Shown here in pieces: positions 1 through 15,237 of a stretch of DNA of 42,937 nt (position 1 is its first letter; the number at the start of each line of letters is the position of its first letter). The DNA comes from Candidatus Omnitrophota bacterium (lineage in GTDB: Bacteria > Omnitrophota > Gorgyraeia > Gygaellales > Profunditerraquicolaceae): NCBI GenBank assembly GCA_043812095.1, contig JBDRMO010000021.1, positions 1 to 42,937 of the forward strand, given 5' to 3'. The notes under the pieces are model-generated. The model worked only from the letters and a program-made list of their open reading frames with translations. It had not been told where the DNA came from and made no database searches. The translations under genes and the position numbers were made by a program.

Positions 1-902
1 CTGCCCATTTCGCTTACCTTAAGATTTGCGAAAGTTGCGTAAACAATTGCAGTTTCTGCATTATACCTAAAATAAAAGGCAGGTTTCAGAGTCTCGATAT
101 AGATTCGGTGCTTAGGAAAGTTGATGGTTTTAATAAGAAAGGGATATCGGAATTAAATATCATTGGTCAGGACATTACGGGTTTTGGTATGGATTTATAT
201 AATCGGCCGCGGTTATCTTCGCTCTTAAGGGAGATACTCAATAAAGCTCCTGATATCGGATGGATCAGGCTTCTTTACTTGTATCCCAGCCGTATCAGTG
301 ACGAACTACTGGAGTTGATTAGGTTAGAAGCGAAACTTTGTAAATATATTGATTTGCCTATACAGCATATAAACCCACGCATACTCAGATTGATGAACCG
401 GGATACAAAAAAGGAAGAGATCCTTAGGTTGATTGAGAAGATCAGAAGATTGGTTCCCAACGTGGCCTTGCGTACTTCTATCATCGCAGGGTTTCCTTCG
501 GAGACAGATAAGGAGTTTAAGGAGCTGTTGAGATTTTTACAAGAGGTGAAATTTGAAAGGTTAGGAGCATTTATCTATTCTAGAGAAGAGAATACCCCTG
601 CTTATGATTTTAAAAATCAGCTTCCCGAGAAAACAAAAATAGAACGCTTTAATGCAATTATGTCCCTGCAGAGGGAAATATCAACTGAGGTCAACAAGAG
701 GATGATTGGGCAGAGTATCGATGTGCTGATTGATCAGGCAAAAAAAGGTTCATATCTGGGTCGTACTCAATATGATGCTCCGGAAGTAGACGGCTTGGTC
801 TATGTGCGCTCAAAACAGAAGTTAGAGGCCGGGGATATTGTAAAAGTAAAAATAAATGATACTTTAGAATATGACCTAGTAGGGGAGGCAATTGATAAAT
901 GA
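1..902 (+). CDS. rimO: Ribosomal protein S12 methylthiotransferase RimO, 5' end cut by window edge
   Basis: The reading frame is open from base 3. Upstream of the listed ORF it reads AHFAYLKICESCVNNCSFCIIPKIKG, a radical SAM CxxxCxxC motif. The C-terminus is TRAM-like (IDVLIDQ...GRTQYDAPEVDGLVYV...GDIVKVKI), typical of RimO. Confidence 0.85.
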   Translation, partial: AHFAYLKICESCVNNCSFCIIPKIKGRFQSLDIDSVLRKVDGFNKKGISELNIIGQDITGFGMDLYNRPRLSSLLREILNKAPDIGWIRLLYLYPSRISDELLELIRLEAKLCKYIDLPIQHINPRILRLMNRDTKKEEILRLIEKIRRLVPNVALRTSIIAGFPSETDKEFKELLRFLQEVKFERLGAFIYSREENTPAYDFKNQLPEKTKIERFNAIMSLQREISTEVNKRMIGQSIDVLIDQAKKGSYLGRTQYDAPEVDGLVYVRSKQKLEAGDIVKVKINDTLEYDLVGEAIDK

Positions 903-8424: not shown

Positions 8425-8622
8425 ATGCGGAAGGCAAGAAAGCAAAAATGGCAAAAGCCGAAGCTGTTTGTGTTATTCAGGAGCGATAGTCAGGAAAAAG
8501 TTCTGGCTAGCTGTAAGTCAACAGTGCGAGCAGCGGGTGGCGGCGGTGGGTTCTGGTGGGGAGCGTGTGAATGGACGGAGTGGTCCTGCGATAATAGCTG
8601 TTCTACAGTAAGCAGTTCGTAA
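8425..8622 (+). CDS. Putative RiPP precursor peptide A (65 aa, Cys/Trp-rich core)
   Basis: GGAGGTG lies 3 nt before the ATG at 8425. The product is MRKARKQKWQKPKLFVLFRSDSQEKVLASCKSTVRAAGGGGGFWWGACEWTEWSCDNSCSTVSSS. Its leader matches the second small ORF at 10674, and it sits directly upstream of radical SAM/SPASM genes. Confidence 0.75.
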   Translation: MRKARKQKWQKPKLFVLFRSDSQEKVLASCKSTVRAAGGGGGFWWGACEWTEWSCDNSCSTVSSS

Positions 8623-8676: not shown

Positions 8677-10653
8677 ATGAGTTTAAATATAGCAGTAAAC
8701 AACTATCTTGAATTGAAGAAGACAGCTGCGTTGCCTCGCCTGCCACTTGAGGGTAGTATTGACTTGACTTTTCGCTGCAATAATAATTGCCGCCATTGTT
8801 GGTTGCGCCTCCCGCCGGATTCAGAAGAAGAAAAAGAAGAGCTCTCATTTGAAGAGATAAAGAAAATAGTTGATCAGGCAAGAATGATGGGCTGCCGTAA
8901 ATGGTCTATCTCAGGCGGTGAACCGATGCTCAGGCCGGATTTCCCTAAAATCTTTGAGTATCTTACCGACAATATCAACTCTTACTCCATTAATACTAAC
9001 GGCACTTTAATTACGCCCAAAATAGCAAAACTTATGGCAAGGAAAGGAATTAAGATGGTTGCTCTGTATGGTGCAACCAAAGATGTTCATGACCATATTA
9101 CCCGCAACCCCGGTTCATTTGAGGCAACTATGCGTGGATTCCAATATTTAAAAGAAGCAGGCGCTGGTTTTACGGTCCAGCTTATCCCGATGAAAGATAA
9201 TTATTATCAATTCAAAGATATGATTCAGCTGGCTGAATCCTTAAGTAAACATTATAGGGTAGGTGCTGCCTGGCTTCATCTTTCGGACTGTTTAGATAAG
9301 GAAAGAAATATGGAAATAATCCGCCAAAGGCTGACACCCAAAGAAGTAGTTGAGCTGGATAAGCCGGATTTATCTTTTGAAGAGAGGGTTGGGGAAAATT
9401 CAGGCTGCTACAAAGCAAATAAAAGCGGTTATTTATTTGCTTCCTGTATAGATCTAAGGCGCGATTTTCACATTGACCCTTACGGGAAAATGACTTTTTG
9501 TTGTTTAATAAAGGAGCCGTCTTTTCGTTATGATTTAAGAAAGGGAAGTTTCCAAGAGGCCTGGGAAGATTTTATTCCTTCTTTAGCCAAAAAAATTAAA
9601 GTGACAAAAGAATACAAAAAGCATTGCGGTGCTTGTGAGCTGCGTAAAGATTGCCGTTGGTGTCCGGTCTATGGTTATCTTGAGCATAGGAAATTTGACG
9701 CTAAGGTTGACTATCTTTGTGCTGTGGCTAAGAAAAATAGAGAGTTTAAAGATAATTGGGGGAAAAACCACAGGCGTTATTTTAGTATAGCTGATAGCAC
9801 TGTTCAGCTAGATTCAGATCTGCCTATCACAAAAAATACCTTTCATCCTAAATTTAGGCATTTTGAAGTAGATGGTCCGGGAGAAGACAACATTAGCATT
9901 AGGCATCATTTTTATCTGCCTGACTTAGAGGACAAGGATTTAGGTAAAGAAGTTTACCGCAAAGCCCCCTGGGCTATATATAAAAAAAATGGCTCTTGGA
10001 TTTATTTGGGAATTTCCTCTGAACGGAAAAATAAAGGTTTGCGTCAGATAGCGGTTTTTAACTCTGATCATACGCGCGCAGAAATTTATAATGATAAAGA
10101 GGCGGCGTTTCTTGGAGGAAATCTACAATCTTTAACGCTGTTTCCCACTGACCAGATATTATTAGCACGTATTTTAGCAGATAGGCAGGGTTGTTATATA
10201 CATTCCTGCGGAGTAAATTTTCAGGGTAAGGGTCTGATTTTTGCCGGCCATTCCGAAGCAGGAAAATCTACTATAGCAACTATGTTAAAAGGCAGGGCTG
10301 AAATACTCTGTGACGATCGCATCATTATACGTAAGAAGCCCGATGGCTTTAAGATCTATGGTACCTGGAGCCACGGTGATGTCCCGGATGTATCGGTAGG
10401 TTCCGCTCCGTTAAATGCAATTTTGTTTTTGGAAAAGTCACAAGATAATAAGCTTATACCTTTAGCTGACAAAAAAGAAATAACCAAAAAGCTTTTGGCC
10501 TGTTTGATAAAACCATTTGTTACAGCTGACTGGTGGGAGAAGACACTTTCTCTTACGGAAAGAGTTATAGAAAAAATACCTTGCTATAGGCTTCATTTTG
10601 ATAAGAGTGGAAGAATAGTGGAGTTGTTGGAAGAAAAGTTACTCATTGATTAA
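8677..10653 (+). CDS. Radical SAM/SPASM peptide-modifying enzyme fused to an HPr-kinase-like P-loop domain
   Basis: The N-terminal half has CNNNCRHC (CxxxCxxC) and Cys-rich SPASM-type motifs (FCCLIKEP; CGACELRKDCRWCP; YLCAVA). The C-terminal half (about nt 9780-10650) reads GKGLIFAGHSEAGKSTIATMLKGRAEILCDDRIII. This resembles the HprK Walker A GxSGxGKS followed by its DDR segment. Confidence 0.75.
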   Translation: MSLNIAVNNYLELKKTAALPRLPLEGSIDLTFRCNNNCRHCWLRLPPDSEEEKEELSFEEIKKIVDQARMMGCRKWSISGGEPMLRPDFPKIFEYLTDNINSYSINTNGTLITPKIAKLMARKGIKMVALYGATKDVHDHITRNPGSFEATMRGFQYLKEAGAGFTVQLIPMKDNYYQFKDMIQLAESLSKHYRVGAAWLHLSDCLDKERNMEIIRQRLTPKEVVELDKPDLSFEERVGENSGCYKANKSGYLFASCIDLRRDFHIDPYGKMTFCCLIKEPSFRYDLRKGSFQEAWEDFIPSLAKKIKVTKEYKKHCGACELRKDCRWCPVYGYLEHRKFDAKVDYLCAVAKKNREFKDNWGKNHRRYFSIADSTVQLDSDLPITKNTFHPKFRHFEVDGPGEDNISIRHHFYLPDLEDKDLGKEVYRKAPWAIYKKNGSWIYLGISSERKNKGLRQIAVFNSDHTRAEIYNDKEAAFLGGNLQSLTLFPTDQILLARILADRQGCYIHSCGVNFQGKGLIFAGHSEAGKSTIATMLKGRAEILCDDRIIIRKKPDGFKIYGTWSHGDVPDVSVGSAPLNAILFLEKSQDNKLIPLADKKEITKKLLACLIKPFVTADWWEKTLSLTERVIEKIPCYRLHFDKSGRIVELLEEKLLID

Positions 10654-10927: not shown

Positions 10928-12058
10928 ATGCACAAAGCATATATATACATGGCAGGGACCTGTTATCCTCATGTTGCCGATGTTGATCTTATTCGTACTT
11001 ACCTAAAAAATAACAATTGGGCGCTATCAAAGAAAATAAAACAAGCCAACCTTATTATTATAACTACCTGTGCCTTTAGCGAAGAAGCAGAAGGTAAATC
11101 GTTTGAGGCTATCAAGAGAGTCCAGAAGGAGAAAAATAAAGCTGCACGGGTAATAGTAACCGGTTGCCTTCCTTCTATTAATAATCTTAAGCTTAGAAGC
11201 GTATTTGACGGGGTTATAATAAGTGCAAATTCTCTTCGGGAATTTAATGGTTTATTAAATGCAAAGTCAATGATAGGGGATGTTAAATATACTGGTTCGC
11301 CCCGTTACTTGAAAAGAAATAGAAATGGAACATATAGACTGAGAATCGGGTGGGGCTGCAGTGGAAAATGTTCTTACTGCGCGGTGAAATTTGTATTTGG
11401 TAAACCGTACAGTAGGTCGATTTCAGACATCCTGATAGAGTTTAATATTGCCTGTGCCAAAGGTTATAGAAAATTTATTCTTGTTGCTAATGATGCTGGC
11501 AGCTATGGCGAAGATCTAGGCACTTCGCTTCCCTGCCTTCTTCGCGAACTTTGTCGGAGGAACCGAGATTGTAAGTTTTTATTATCTCATCTGACTCCTA
11601 GCAAGCTAAAAGAAATGTTGCCGTCCTTAAAGGCATTAGTCCGTTCGGGTAAGATTTGTCAAATGAATGTACCCGTAGAATCCGGTAGTAATAGAATAAT
11701 ACGTCTGATGAATAGATCTTATACTGTTGATGATTTTAAATATTGCATAGAGAAGTTAACGGGCTACAATTCAAATCTCCGACTACTTACGGACGTTATG
11801 GTCGGTTTTCCATCAGAAACAGAACAAGATTTTTTAGAAACCAGCAAACTTGTAGAATGGTTAGGCAGAAACAACGTAGTTTTTCACAATTTGTCTTATT
11901 CTCCAAGGCCAAATACAGAGGCCAGTAAATTACCCGGTCAAATCGATCAGATAACTAAGAGTGTTCGCCTAAAAAAGATAGCAAGGTTAAGTGAAATTAG
12001 CTACTTGTTAAGAAATAAAGGATTATTTGGGAAGATAAAGAGAAAAAGAATATTCTAA
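10928..12058 (+). CDS. MiaB/RimO-family methylthiotransferase-like radical SAM protein lacking a TRAM domain
   Basis: The N-terminal MTTase-type domain keeps three spaced Cys (AGTCYP, TTCAFSEEAE, VTGCLPS). The radical SAM motif is GCSGKCSYC. The downstream VGFPSETEQDF parallels AGFPSETDKEF in the rimO at the window start. The protein is only 376 aa with no TRAM-like C-terminus. Confidence 0.7.
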   Translation: MHKAYIYMAGTCYPHVADVDLIRTYLKNNNWALSKKIKQANLIIITTCAFSEEAEGKSFEAIKRVQKEKNKAARVIVTGCLPSINNLKLRSVFDGVIISANSLREFNGLLNAKSMIGDVKYTGSPRYLKRNRNGTYRLRIGWGCSGKCSYCAVKFVFGKPYSRSISDILIEFNIACAKGYRKFILVANDAGSYGEDLGTSLPCLLRELCRRNRDCKFLLSHLTPSKLKEMLPSLKALVRSGKICQMNVPVESGSNRIIRLMNRSYTVDDFKYCIEKLTGYNSNLRLLTDVMVGFPSETEQDFLETSKLVEWLGRNNVVFHNLSYSPRPNTEASKLPGQIDQITKSVRLKKIARLSEISYLLRNKGLFGKIKRKRIF

Positions 12059-12129: not shown

Positions 12130-13308
12130 ATGACAAGAGGATCTTACGTTAAAAAAGAGAGGATAGAAAGAACTCTTTTCTGGAAAGATAAAAAGCCCCT
12201 TTTATGCCGATTGGATATGGAACTTACCGAGCGTTGCAATAACAACTGTATTCATTGCTGTATTAATTTACCGGCTGATGATTTAAAAGCTAAAGAGAGA
12301 GAATTAGCCGGTGAAAAGATAAAGAATATTTTAGAAGAGGCTGTTTCGTTAGATTGTATGTCGGTAAGGTTTACCGGAGGTGAGCCTCTTTTAAGAGAGG
12401 ATTTCCAAGATTTATATCTATTTGCCAGAAAAAAGGGCTTAAAGGTGCTAATCTTTACCAACGCAACTCTCATAACCCCTCAAATAATTGATTTATTTTC
12501 GCGAGTCCCTCCTTTAGAAAAGATAGAGGTTACTGTATACGGGATGAAGCAAGATTCGTATGAAACAGTAACGCGGATACCCGGATCATTTGAAGCTGCA
12601 TGGAGGGGGATAAATCTTTTGATGGAAAAGAAAATTCCTTTTGTTGTCAAGGGTGCGTTACTACCATGCAATAAAGATGAGATTGATGGGTTTGAGTCCT
12701 GGGCTAAAAAGATTCCCTGGATGGATGGCAAGCCCCCGGGGTATTCTATGTTTTTAGATCTACGTTGCCGCAGAGACGGTAATAAAAACGAGAGCATCAA
12801 AAAGCTGAGAGTTACTCCGCAGGAGGGGCTAGAAGTCCTCACGCGTAAAAAAAACAGTTATATCAAAGGAATGAAGGAATTTTGCTCTAAATTTATGTAT
12901 CCTCCGGGAGAAAATATCTTCTCTTGCGGTGCCGGCTGTGTAGGTTGCGTTGATGCCTATGGAAATTTTCAGGCCTGCTTGATGTTGAGGCATCCGGATA
13001 CTGTCTATGATCTTAAAAAAGGCTCTCTTAATAATGCCCTCACTAATTTTTTACCTAAATTAAGAGGGATCAAATCAAGTAATGTTGATTATTTAAATAG
13101 ATGTGCCAGATGCTTCTTAAAAGGTCTCTGTGAGCAGTGTCCGGCAAAGAGCTGGATGGAACATGGTACCTTAGATACACCGGTTGAGTATTTATGCGAG
13201 GTTGCGCATACTCAGGCAAGGTTTTTAGGGTTGCTCAAAGAAAATGAGATGGCTTGGGAGATAGATCATTGGCAAGGGAGAATAAGAAAGTTTTTGAATA
13301 CTAATTAG
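12130..13308 (+). CDS. Radical SAM/SPASM domain protein (PqqE-like peptide maturase)
   Basis: CNNNCIHC radical SAM motif, a GGEPLL SAM-binding motif, and C-terminal Cys clusters (CGAGCVGCVDAYGNFQAC; RCARCFLKGLCEQCPA; YLCEVA). Confidence 0.85.
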   Translation: MTRGSYVKKERIERTLFWKDKKPLLCRLDMELTERCNNNCIHCCINLPADDLKAKERELAGEKIKNILEEAVSLDCMSVRFTGGEPLLREDFQDLYLFARKKGLKVLIFTNATLITPQIIDLFSRVPPLEKIEVTVYGMKQDSYETVTRIPGSFEAAWRGINLLMEKKIPFVVKGALLPCNKDEIDGFESWAKKIPWMDGKPPGYSMFLDLRCRRDGNKNESIKKLRVTPQEGLEVLTRKKNSYIKGMKEFCSKFMYPPGENIFSCGAGCVGCVDAYGNFQACLMLRHPDTVYDLKKGSLNNALTNFLPKLRGIKSSNVDYLNRCARCFLKGLCEQCPAKSWMEHGTLDTPVEYLCEVAHTQARFLGLLKENEMAWEIDHWQGRIRKFLNTN

Positions 13309-13320
13309 GAGGGAATATCT

Positions 13321-13632
13321 ATGGATACAAAGATTAATCTTGGTAATGTCTATATTCCATCTGAGAATATAGTTGCAAGAGAGGTTCAGGGAGAATTTAT
13401 TATTATCCCAATCACCTCCGGTATCGCGGACATGGAGGATGAACTCTTTAGCTTAAATGAAACTGGAAAGGCAGTATGGAAGAAATTAGACGGAAAGAGA
13501 ACGCTCGCTGATGTTATCAAGGATTTATTCTCTGAATTTGAGGTTTCTCATGATCAGCTTAAAAAAGATGTATTAGGAATTATCAGAGAAATTCTCGATC
13601 GGAAAATGATAGTTGAGGTTAAGAAGGCTTAA
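13321..13632 (+). CDS. PqqD-family protein (likely RiPP precursor recognition element)
   Basis: 103 aa with a PqqD-like pattern (FIIIP ... LFSLNETGKAVWKKLDGKRTLADVIKDL ... DVLGIIREILDRKMI). It sits between radical SAM/SPASM genes. Confidence 0.75.
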   Translation: MDTKINLGNVYIPSENIVAREVQGEFIIIPITSGIADMEDELFSLNETGKAVWKKLDGKRTLADVIKDLFSEFEVSHDQLKKDVLGIIREILDRKMIVEVKKA

Positions 13633-13645
13633 ATCATATTATCCT

Positions 13646-14119
13646 ATGGTAGAAAATGAACTCACTATTTCAAACGCAGTTTTAATTGATCTGATGAAGG
13701 ATGCGGCTAGCAAAGGAAGTTCCTTTAAATTCCAGGTAAAAGGCTTCAGCATGTTGCCATTTATCAGGGATAATGATGTGCTTACAATCTCTCCTTTTTC
13801 GCCGTTTTCTAACAACCTTGGGAATTCAGTTGCGTTTATCCATCCTAAAACAGAAAGTTTGATTATCCATAGGTTAATTGCTAAGCATAATAATTCTTAT
13901 ATTGTAAAAGGAGATAATATCCCTACACCAGACGGGTTAATTAGTAGAAAAGATATAGTAGGCTTTGTGTCGGGCATAGAGAGAAAAGGTAAAAAAGTCT
14001 TATTTGGTTTCGGTCCGGAACGCTTTCTGATAGTTTTACTAAGCCGTATAAATATCTTTTTCTTGCTTATTTCTGTACACAGGTTTATGCGCCAAACTTT
14101 AAGGAGATTTTCCGGATGA
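13646..14119 (+). CDS. S24/S26-family serine peptidase-like protein (candidate leader peptidase), C-terminal TM segment
   Basis: The Ser motif VKGFSMLPFI and the Lys motif YIVKGDN resemble signal peptidase I/LexA-type catalytic dyads. The tail is hydrophobic (FLIVLLSRINIFFLLISV). I chose the ATG at 13646; the ORF track starts at TTG 13613. The stop overlaps the next gene (ATGA). Confidence 0.65.
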   Translation: MVENELTISNAVLIDLMKDAASKGSSFKFQVKGFSMLPFIRDNDVLTISPFSPFSNNLGNSVAFIHPKTESLIIHRLIAKHNNSYIVKGDNIPTPDGLISRKDIVGFVSGIERKGKKVLFGFGPERFLIVLLSRINIFFLLISVHRFMRQTLRRFSG

Positions 14120-15237
14120 GTGAGCCTTTTTCTTCCCAAATTCCTTTACCTGAATTTGGCCTCTGGAAGAAGATGCAAGATAAAAGGAACCTTGTGTCTT
14201 TCGATTTAGAAATTACTGCACGCTGTAATCAGCATTGTCGGCACTGCTATATTAATTTAGCTGCGGGTGACAGACAGGCAAAAGAAAAAGAGTTGTCTTT
14301 GTGCAAAATCAAAACAATAGTTGATCAGGCGATAGATTTAGGGGCATTATGGTGTCTTGTTACCGGAGGAGAACCGTTATTAAGAGAAGATTTTTTTGAT
14401 ATCTATCTTTATTTAAAAAAGAGTGGGCTTTTGATTTCAGTTTTCACCAATGCAACTTTAATTACAGAACAACATATACGGTTTTTCAGGAAATATCCAC
14501 CGAGGGATATCGAAGTGACAGTCTATGGCGTTACTAAAGAGACATATGAGCGGGTGACTAGGAAAACTGGTTCTTTTGATGCTTTTATGCGCGGACTTAA
14601 TTTGCTGCTTAAGAATGGAATTAAAGTTCGTTTTAAGGCAATGGCCCTGCGCTCAAACGTCCATGAGTTAGAGGAAATTGCTAGTTTCTGCAGGGAAAGG
14701 ACAAAGGATTATTTTCGTTTTGATCCGTTTTTGCATTTACGTTTTGATGGAAACGCAAAGCGTAACCAGGAGATAAAATCAGAACGGCTTTTAGCAGAAG
14801 AAATCGTAGCGATTGAGCGGGCTGATAGTGAGCGTTTTAATGCTTTGGAAAAAGGATGCGATAAGTTGATTATGCCTGAAGCCGAACATATCAATTGCAA
14901 TCACCTTTTTCATTGCGGCACGGGGAACGGAAGTTTTACGGTAAGTTATGATGGTTTTTTCCGGCTCTGCTCTTCGCTCGGGCATCCGGCGTGTATTTAT
15001 GACCTTAAAAACGGTAATTTAAGTGAGGCATGGGAAAATTTTTCTTTAAAGGTTCGCGATATGCGTTCCGACAAAAATGAGTTTTTGGATAAATGCAGAA
15101 AGTGTCCGATTATCAATCTTTGTATCTGGTGTCCGGCGCATGCCCATTTAGAAACCGGAGAATTAGATCAGCCAGTAGATTATTTCTGTAAAGTAGCTCA
15201 AGCCCGCGAGAAAATGCTTAATTCCTTTATCCAATAA
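14116..15237 (+). CDS. Radical SAM/SPASM domain protein (third paralogue)
   Basis: CNQHCRHC motif, GGEPLL, and C-terminal Cys clusters (HCGTGNGSFTVSYDGFFRLC; KCRKCPIINLCIWCPA; YFCKVA). It is collinear with the 12130 protein. Confidence 0.85.
   Translation: MSEPFSSQIPLPEFGLWKKMQDKRNLVSFDLEITARCNQHCRHCYINLAAGDRQAKEKELSLCKIKTIVDQAIDLGALWCLVTGGEPLLREDFFDIYLYLKKSGLLISVFTNATLITEQHIRFFRKYPPRDIEVTVYGVTKETYERVTRKTGSFDAFMRGLNLLLKNGIKVRFKAMALRSNVHELEEIASFCRERTKDYFRFDPFLHLRFDGNAKRNQEIKSERLLAEEIVAIERADSERFNALEKGCDKLIMPEAEHINCNHLFHCGTGNGSFTVSYDGFFRLCSSLGHPACIYDLKNGNLSEAWENFSLKVRDMRSDKNEFLDKCRKCPIINLCIWCPAHAHLETGELDQPVDYFCKVAQAREKMLNSFIQ

Follow-up and report, generated by a model that had tools for sequence, protein, structure and literature searches.

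A TRAM-less methylthiotransferase homologue associated with a rare family of ribosomal precursor peptides in Candidatus Omnitrophota

The gene cluster and its TRAM-less enzyme

The stretch analysed here, referred to as the window, comprises the 42,937 nucleotides of contig JBDRMO010000021.1 (assembly GCA_043812095.1) from a Candidatus Omnitrophota bacterium. Our subject is the gene at 10928..12058 on its plus strand, which encodes a radical S-adenosylmethionine (SAM) enzyme of the methylthiotransferase (MTTase) family lacking the C-terminal TRAM domain, and which lies in a putative cluster for a peptide made on the ribosome and modified after translation (RiPP). The order along the plus strand is tRNA-Pro, precursor 1, SPASM-ScmC fusion, precursor 2, MTTase-like gene, SPASM, PqqD, peptidase and SPASM, with the housekeeping genes for acylphosphatase and LigA downstream. 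An initial annotation of the window had described the enzyme gene as embedded among peptide-modification genes, and this context is real: there are two precursor-like open reading frames, three radical SAM/SPASM genes (one of them fused to ScmC), a PqqD gene standing between SPASM genes, and a gene for an S24/S26-like peptidase. E values for the precursors are from a profile hidden Markov model (HMM) of their family.

10928..12058, plus strand: TRAM-less MTTase-family radical SAM enzyme, 376 residues, with UPF0004 cysteines C12/C48/C80 and radical SAM cysteines C144/C148/C151
8325-8402, plus strand: tRNA-Pro(CGG), 22 nt upstream of precursor 1
8425..8622, plus strand: precursor peptide 1, 65 residues from the first ATG, MRKARKQKWQKPKLFVLFRSDSQEKVLASCK | STVRAAGGGGGFWWGACEWTEWSCDNSCSTVSSS (HMM E 1e-35; P0268)
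8677..10653, plus strand: radical SAM/SPASM maturase with a C-terminal ScmC/HPr-kinase-like P-loop domain, 658 residues
10674..10856, plus strand: precursor peptide 2, 60 residues, MSKKKWVKPMLILLVRGRSEEIVLATCK | GSTAFGPSTPTGGACAALPLPGCGSCNFKAPS (HMM E 1e-28)
12130..13308, plus strand: radical SAM/SPASM-type peptide maturase, 392 residues, 59% identical to its counterpart in locus L100
13321..13632, plus strand: PqqD-family peptide chaperone (RiPP recognition element, RRE), 103 residues, PF05402 E 5.5e-14
13613..14119, plus strand: S24/S26 (signal peptidase I-like) peptidase, candidate leader peptidase, 168 residues, TIGR02228 E 1.5e-11, below cut-off
14116..15237, plus strand: radical SAM/SPASM peptide maturase, 373 residues, with Radical_SAM and SPASM matches
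3..902, plus strand: canonical RimO including TRAM, partial, running off the left edge of the window (TIGR01125 positions 174-432, 285 bits)

The open reading frame of the enzyme has 376 codons plus a stop when read from the first ATG (10928), the start favoured by its homologues; the gene caller chose M8 instead (P0001, 369 residues). Pfam detects only UPF0004 (PF00919; residues 12-92, E 2.4e-15) and Radical_SAM (PF04055; residues 143-308, E 1.6e-18), with no match to PF01938 or PF18693 for TRAM. When the enzyme was aligned to the MiaB/RimO family model of NCBIfam (TIGR00089), its residues 12-369 covered profile positions 9-373 of 429 and the last ~55 positions, the TRAM part, found no counterpart. 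The score of 233.4 bits does not reach the family cut-off of 251 bits, which is consistent with the absence of that part. A TRAM domain hidden by a frameshift is excluded because the next gene (12130) starts 72 nt past the stop. In an AlphaFold2 model built from the family alignment (predicted local distance difference test 89.5; predicted template modelling score 0.85), two helices (341-375), with a short basic helix at the end, occupy the C-terminus at the point where canonical enzymes enter TRAM. The earlier description of a 376-residue protein without TRAM is therefore borne out by Pfam, by the end of the TIGR00089 alignment at 373 and by the modelled helices after residue 341.

The cysteines expected to bind the clusters occur in AGTC (C12), TTCAF (C48), TGCLP (C80) and CSGKCSYC (C144/C148/C151), and these motifs, together with GFPSETE, were all found in the translation of 10928-12058 as the initial annotation had quoted them. 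In an alignment of 23 family members neither the radical SAM motif C144-x3-C148-x2-C151 nor any of the three N-terminal cysteines C12, C48 and C80 varies, and the boxes for SAM binding, PVESGSNRI and GFPSETE, are likewise retained without change across the family. The family profile finds RimO (4JC0, 182 bits) as its best sequence match in the PDB and MiaB (7MJV) at 166 bits. All six cysteines of the enzyme line up with the cluster ligands of these two proteins, and our ligand assignment rests on this alignment to solved structures. Foldseek comparison of the model with the PDB returned MtaB, MiaB and RimO as the best matches (TMq 0.77-0.82), led by MtaB 9A6D and MiaB 7MJW, with RimO at 0.80. 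The presence of both [4Fe-4S] ligand sets, which the initial annotation had put forward for checking, thus agrees with the ligand alignment and with a fold match at TMq ~0.8, and the evidence supports the enzyme as a true MTTase-family homologue that has both ligand sets and no TRAM. Pfam detected no RRE inside it.

The window holds only two MTTase-family genes, this one and the rimO gene at 3..902. The latter had been called a genuine RimO and we find the same, since its match to TIGR01125 takes in the TRAM region. Judged by its sequence, the genome is equipped with a standard S12 MTTase, and the TRAM-less gene is an additional paralogue because a canonical RimO with TRAM is kept in the same window. 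The two proteins had also been said to share a GFPSETE box; GFPSET is indeed present in both, but the seventh residue differs, the box reading AGFPSETD in RimO and VGFPSETE in the TRAM-less enzyme.

Phylogenetic placement and the wider TRAM-less clade

Scores against the NCBIfam equivalog models were 182.7 bits for MtaB, 177.8 for MiaB, 177.4 for e-MtaB and 159.9 for RimO (TIGR01125). None of these approaches the respective cut-off, the range being 315-357 bits for the four models, with 357 for TIGR01125. We constructed a neighbour-joining tree of 93 sequences over 372 columns, from which the TRAM columns were excluded, with 100 bootstraps. Its references were anchored by NCBIfam (P0072 for MiaB, P0086 for MtaB, P0060 and P0076 for e-MtaB), and it also took in the PDB sequences of RimO and MiaB and MTTases from retrieved genomes. 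The canonical clades were recovered with bootstrap values of 98 (MiaB), 86 (MtaB), 99 (e-MtaB) and 79 (RimO). The tree is distance-based, and RimO is sparsely represented in it, by two sequences of which one is a fragment. The family of our enzyme is monophyletic at 97% bootstrap, and together with other short homologues that belong to no equivalog it is split from all canonical MTTases at 100%. Placed against MiaB, RimO, MtaB and e-MtaB, as the initial annotation had proposed, the enzyme accordingly falls outside the tRNA-modifying clades, and the tree supports the view that it is orthologous to no known MTTase and belongs outside both the tRNA- and the S12-modifying lineages. MiaB, MtaB and e-MtaB (CDKAL1), which act on tRNA A37, resemble it in fold and have both cluster motifs and the SAM-binding boxes in common with it, but they possess TRAM, have tRNA substrates and form well-supported clades that exclude the query family. 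RimO, the β-methylthiotransferase of uS12 Asp88 (4JC0, TIGR01125), is built on the same UPF0004 and radical SAM core and likewise has two ligand sets for [4Fe-4S] clusters; it differs in its C-terminal TRAM and its single housekeeping substrate, and the enzyme does not group with it.

The narrow family is rare. A search of 5.8 billion proteins yielded ~36 clusters at 90% identity (P0001-P0036), 43-100% identical and 341-410 residues long, with no TRAM match in any of the 36; the members with a named source are from Candidatus Omnitrophota. The edge of the family is marked by a sharp fall in score from 334 to 238 bits at the next matches. A metagenome scan of 241 million records with an N-terminal sub-alignment was specific and gave nine family loci, several duplicating known ones. 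When 185,579 species genomes were scanned with the full family alignment, canonical MTTases dominated and one true family locus (L009) was among the matches listed; the other loci were reused as MiaB, MtaB and e-MtaB references.

These results bear on the possibility that we are dealing with a housekeeping MTTase that acts on tRNA, rRNA or a ribosomal protein and has simply lost its TRAM, its peptide neighbours being coincidental or reflecting RiPP genes inserted nearby. Outside the TRAM-less clade the closest sequence matches are MtaB and e-MtaB. The window cluster is closely preceded by a tRNA gene, and the enzyme gene in loci L001 and L095 by tRNA-like sequence. Against such a role are the separation of the lineage from every tRNA and S12 clade, the absence of TRAM, and a rarity (nine loci in the metagenome records, one close match among those listed for the species genomes) that is too great for a housekeeping function. 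Taking these together with the genomic linkage described below, we consider this explanation very improbable.

A HMMER search of 1.84 billion representatives recovered the narrow family as ~5 clusters at 50% identity (397-592 bits) and, beyond it, no fewer than 145 other representatives scoring 268-332 bits. Nearly all of these are 360-440 residues long, and since the match ends near their C-terminus they too lack TRAM. This wider TRAM-less clade comprises at least 150 clusters at 50% identity (P0037-P0059, P0121-P0267; loci L010-L013, L099), is hosted by Bathyarchaeia, Altiarchaeota, bacteria of the candidate phyla radiation and others, and at present carries the annotation 'radical SAM protein' or the mistaken labels MiaB, RimO or CDKAL1. 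Its genomic contexts are mixed, with glycosyltransferase clusters (L011) and B12-radical SAM neighbours (L099), the latter also seen beside a member of the narrow family (L089), and it includes a few tandem self-fusions such as P0124 (1019 residues) and P0133 (1245 residues). This variety would fit an enzyme that takes a non-peptide substrate of the pathway or some other cluster protein, or one that functions solely as a radical SAM methylase or epimerase and uses the auxiliary cluster as an electron conduit. The three auxiliary cysteines are, however, invariant, as in the sulfur-donating MTTases, and the minimal loci consisting of precursor and enzyme encode no other pathway substrate nearby; we regard such an activity as improbable.

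The precursor family and its linkage to the enzyme

The two precursors of the window have a common leader, KKWxKPxLxxLxRxxxEExVLxxCK. Precursor 2 is preceded by an AGGAGG ribosome-binding site, its gene lying 72 nt upstream of the MTTase-like gene, and the listed reading frame of precursor 1 opens at GTG 8413, upstream of its first ATG. A profile search of the 5.8 billion proteins found the precursor family in 17 clusters only, all with the same leader (consensus KKWxKPxLxxLVRGxxEExVLxxCK; fuller form KKWEKPKLxVLVRGKPEEAVLxxCK). The core is hypervariable. It carries a cysteine pattern C...C-x2-C (C-x7-8-C-x2-C), and its last residue is almost without exception Ser or, occasionally, Thr, these cysteines and the C-terminal Ser/Thr being the only invariant features. 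No NCBIfam model matches the family, which is previously undescribed. Further members were located as follows.

L003, 10192-10380: precursor-family member
L007, 7750-7956: precursor-family member
L089, 9271-9465: precursor-family member
L100, 3608-3796: precursor-family member
L101 and L102: precursor-family members in tandem copies

With the precursor HMM we found the MTTase-like gene accompanied by a precursor in four independent loci, namely the window, L003/L004/L098, L007 and L089, within ~250 nt of that gene in each (with ScmC between the two in the L003-type order). Enzyme identity over these loci is 43-100% and the gene orders differ. The window and L007 have the precursor before the MTTase-like gene. 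In L003/L004/L098, where the enzyme is 43% identical, the order is MTTase-like gene, ScmC, precursor, radical SAM, PqqD, radical SAM and YcaO. L007 (57% identical) consists of precursor and MTTase-like gene with no other RiPP-like gene, and L089 (58% identical) of a carbamoyltransferase gene, the MTTase-like gene and the precursor, with the B12-radical SAM neighbour mentioned above. A further relative, P0002 (76% identical), lies in the same SPASM/PqqD/S24 cluster as in the window, with the enzyme gene placed after the last SPASM gene. Given a peptide family so rare, four independent loci and shuffled gene orders, coincidence cannot account for the adjacency. The association with ribosomal peptide precursors that had been proposed from the window is thereby borne out, and with a family of 17 clusters the neighbourhood cannot be the fortuitous one that a housekeeping role would need.

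L007 and L089 deserve particular attention, for there the MTTase-like gene is the sole candidate maturase beside the precursor and neither SPASM nor PqqD genes are nearby. It had been suggested that a PqqD-like protein delivers the substrate in place of TRAM. Because no PqqD gene is found near the enzyme in these two loci, delivery by PqqD is not required; it may occur in the window and in L005, where a PqqD gene lies directly upstream of the enzyme gene (P0018).

Since the substrate-binding tail has been lost and adjacency to one precursor family is repeated, the enzyme probably modifies precursor peptides, and we consider it likely that it acts on those encoded beside it. Several observations weigh against this conclusion and are best considered together. 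Of the ten distinct family loci for which DNA was available, six have no member of this precursor family within ~8 kb according to the precursor HMM, and two of these, P0017 (L009) and P0034 (L008), have no RiPP-like neighbours, as would be expected of a housekeeping enzyme; the cluster context is thus conserved in four loci but not throughout the family. Conversely, L100 carries ScmC, radical SAM, PqqD, S24, radical SAM, precursor and ABC exporter genes and has no MTTase gene in the 5.7 kb assembled, despite its precursor and SPASM/PqqD set. No leader-recognition element was identified in the enzyme. An Asp-Cys pair, D88-C89, marks the RimO site in uS12; such a motif is present in only ~5 of 18 cores and was rejected as a defining motif. 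No target C-H is evident, as the cores are invariant only in their cysteines and C-terminal Ser/Thr. From L100 on the one hand and L007 and L089 on the other, we conclude that the MTTase-like enzyme and the SPASM/PqqD set are separable modules sharing one precursor family.

The other four precursor-less loci are arranged as follows. P0022 (L001/L002/L095) overlaps a gene for a 486-residue radical SAM protein (L001 9101-10561, plus strand), P0021 (L090-92) faces one for a 501-residue radical SAM protein (L090 9301-10806, minus strand) and a peptide with a double-glycine leader, P0018 (L005) is followed, beyond the upstream PqqD, by glycosyltransferase-PqqD fusions and a SPASM enzyme, and P0032 (L006) lies among radical SAM genes. 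Enzymes of the precursor-less loci may have different precursors, work in trans or serve some other function. The association of P0021 and P0022 with a radical SAM protein of 486-501 residues suggests a second, different peptide system tied to the enzyme family. The double-glycine-leader peptide of L090 (11161-11310, minus strand) has 49 residues, MAGKRK...LSEEELKKVSGG|VTPQKPLTIDCWQK. In L005 we noted a 39-residue open reading frame (10312-10431, plus strand), MKENNKKGMKLKEKSKKPYQKPTLAKFKQFKQIIATGAP, between the GT2-PqqD fusion and the SPASM enzyme and 1.2 kb downstream of P0018; its YxKPxL recalls the WxKPxL of the leader, with a weak match to the precursor HMM (E 0.79). The translation upstream of the MTTase-like gene at ~7700-7790 of L001 and ~7695-7780 of L095 (LAQLVRA...GFKPS) looks tRNA-like.

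Candidate chemistry and relation to known systems

What the initial annotation had read from the sequence was thus confirmed and its interpretation partly supported, the peptide link having held and the role given to PqqD having proved not to be required. We propose that a TRAM-less lineage of the radical SAM MTTase superfamily was recruited to a RiPP pathway and that its substrate would most likely be the core region of the co-encoded precursors. By homology with RimO and MiaB, the reaction would have two steps. One SAM would methylate a sulfide on the free iron of the auxiliary [4Fe-4S] cluster held by C12/C48/C80, and the radical SAM cluster (C144/C148/C151) would cleave a further SAM to a 5'-deoxyadenosyl radical. 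This radical would take a hydrogen from a C-H of the peptide, and the resulting carbon radical would capture the methylthio group, for a gain of 46 Da. In the window the enzyme would work with three SPASM enzymes, the PqqD chaperone, the HPr-kinase-like domain and the S24/S26-like peptidase. The peptide as substrate is our deduction from sequence and gene context, and methylthiolation, extrapolated from homology only, is put forward less firmly; we rate it as just short of an even prospect. There is a precedent in that RimO acts on a protein side chain and, in vitro, on a peptide analogue of uS12 (PMC13063428).

The same peptide might instead undergo a different sulfur chemistry, in which a core cysteine binds through its thiolate to the auxiliary cluster's open iron and is attacked at the sulfur by the carbon radical. 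This would yield an intramolecular thioether (-2 Da) of the sacti- or ranthipeptide type, and insertion of sulfur without methylation is a related possibility. With three cysteine ligands the auxiliary cluster would have one coordination site free, like those of RimO and MiaB, and the cysteines (C-x7-8-C-x2-C) with the C-terminal Ser/Thr are all that is conserved in the cores. The core cysteines are also kept in L007 and L089. As these loci have no SPASM thioether synthase in the vicinity and the MTTase-like enzyme is the one candidate to use the cysteines, a cysteine-to-carbon thioether is a serious alternative. On the other hand, no known MTTase-fold enzyme forms thioether crosslinks, all features of the two-SAM MTTase cycle are retained, and the three SPASM enzymes of the window are more conventional candidates for crosslinking cysteines there. 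On balance we think a thioether unlikely. The known sactipeptide and ranthipeptide synthases (AlbA, PapB, CteB) resemble our enzyme as radical SAM proteins that act on cysteine-containing RiPP cores and have an auxiliary Fe-S cluster with an open site, but their auxiliary domains are C-terminal SPASM or twitch domains rather than an N-terminal UPF0004, and they belong to another fold family.

The cluster as a whole recalls SynChlorMet (SCM; TIGR04248-04251) and GeoRSP (TIGR04302/04303), which likewise combine at least two PqqE-like SPASM proteins with a PqqD homologue and a ScmC/HPr-kinase-like protein. The scores of the window cluster against the SCM equivalogs, given as score/cut-off in bits, were 36/125 for ScmC, 33/100 for ScmD and 62-95/400 for ScmE/F. 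As no cut-off of ScmC, ScmD, ScmE or ScmF is reached, the cluster falls outside SCM despite its analogous architecture. SCM as defined by the NCBIfam models has no MTTase, and the window cluster also differs in its fusion of ScmC to a SPASM enzyme and in having two recognizable precursors. The C-terminal domain of 8677..10653 matches TIGR04249 ScmC (E 3.6e-9) and HprK-related kinase B (E 6e-8), both below cut-off, and its ~300-residue extent includes the P-loop motif GHSEAGKST. A ScmC/HPr-kinase-like domain is also found at L003 9264-10169 and on the P0002 contig, often with an NTP_transf_5 gene. HPr-kinase-like kinases phosphorylate the C-terminal Ser of paeninodin-type lasso peptides; by this likeness, and with Ser or Thr as the last residue of the precursors, their C-terminal O-phosphorylation is plausible.

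GC content is uniform (~0.40) across the window cluster, and we saw no compositional sign of recent transfer. Scans for promoters and terminators gave matches at or below shuffle expectation. The tRNA-Pro gene before precursor 1 may mark an insertion hotspot or be a coincidence.

A 2023 study (PMC10702137) names tRNA A37 and, in the ribosomal protein uS12, Asp88 as the sole MTTase substrates known, and RimO is the only MTTase known to have a protein or peptide substrate (PMC10702137, PMC13063428). A 2021 review on the radical SAM enzymes of RiPP pathways mentions RimO in its reference list only. We found no report of an MTTase tied to RiPP biosynthesis in the full-text literature searched, which does not cover most subscription journals. 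Neither the fold nor the likely chemistry is new, but such a domain architecture has not been reported, the lineage is separate and the substrate class would be new. We advance, as a possible though somewhat doubtful proposition, that this is the first MTTase-fold enzyme dedicated to ribosomal natural-product peptides, equipping a new precursor family with C-SCH3 or with some other sulfur modification derived from the cluster, and that the wider TRAM-less clade is a fifth MTTase branch acting on neither tRNA nor S12.

If this is true, a new post-translational modification would be added to the RiPP repertoire, and the enzyme would show how the MTTase scaffold is retargeted after loss of TRAM. 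The two-gene systems of precursor and enzyme in L007 and L089 would be tractable for studying sulfur donation by the auxiliary cluster. The analysis also brings to attention a large, unannotated clade of TRAM-less MTTases.

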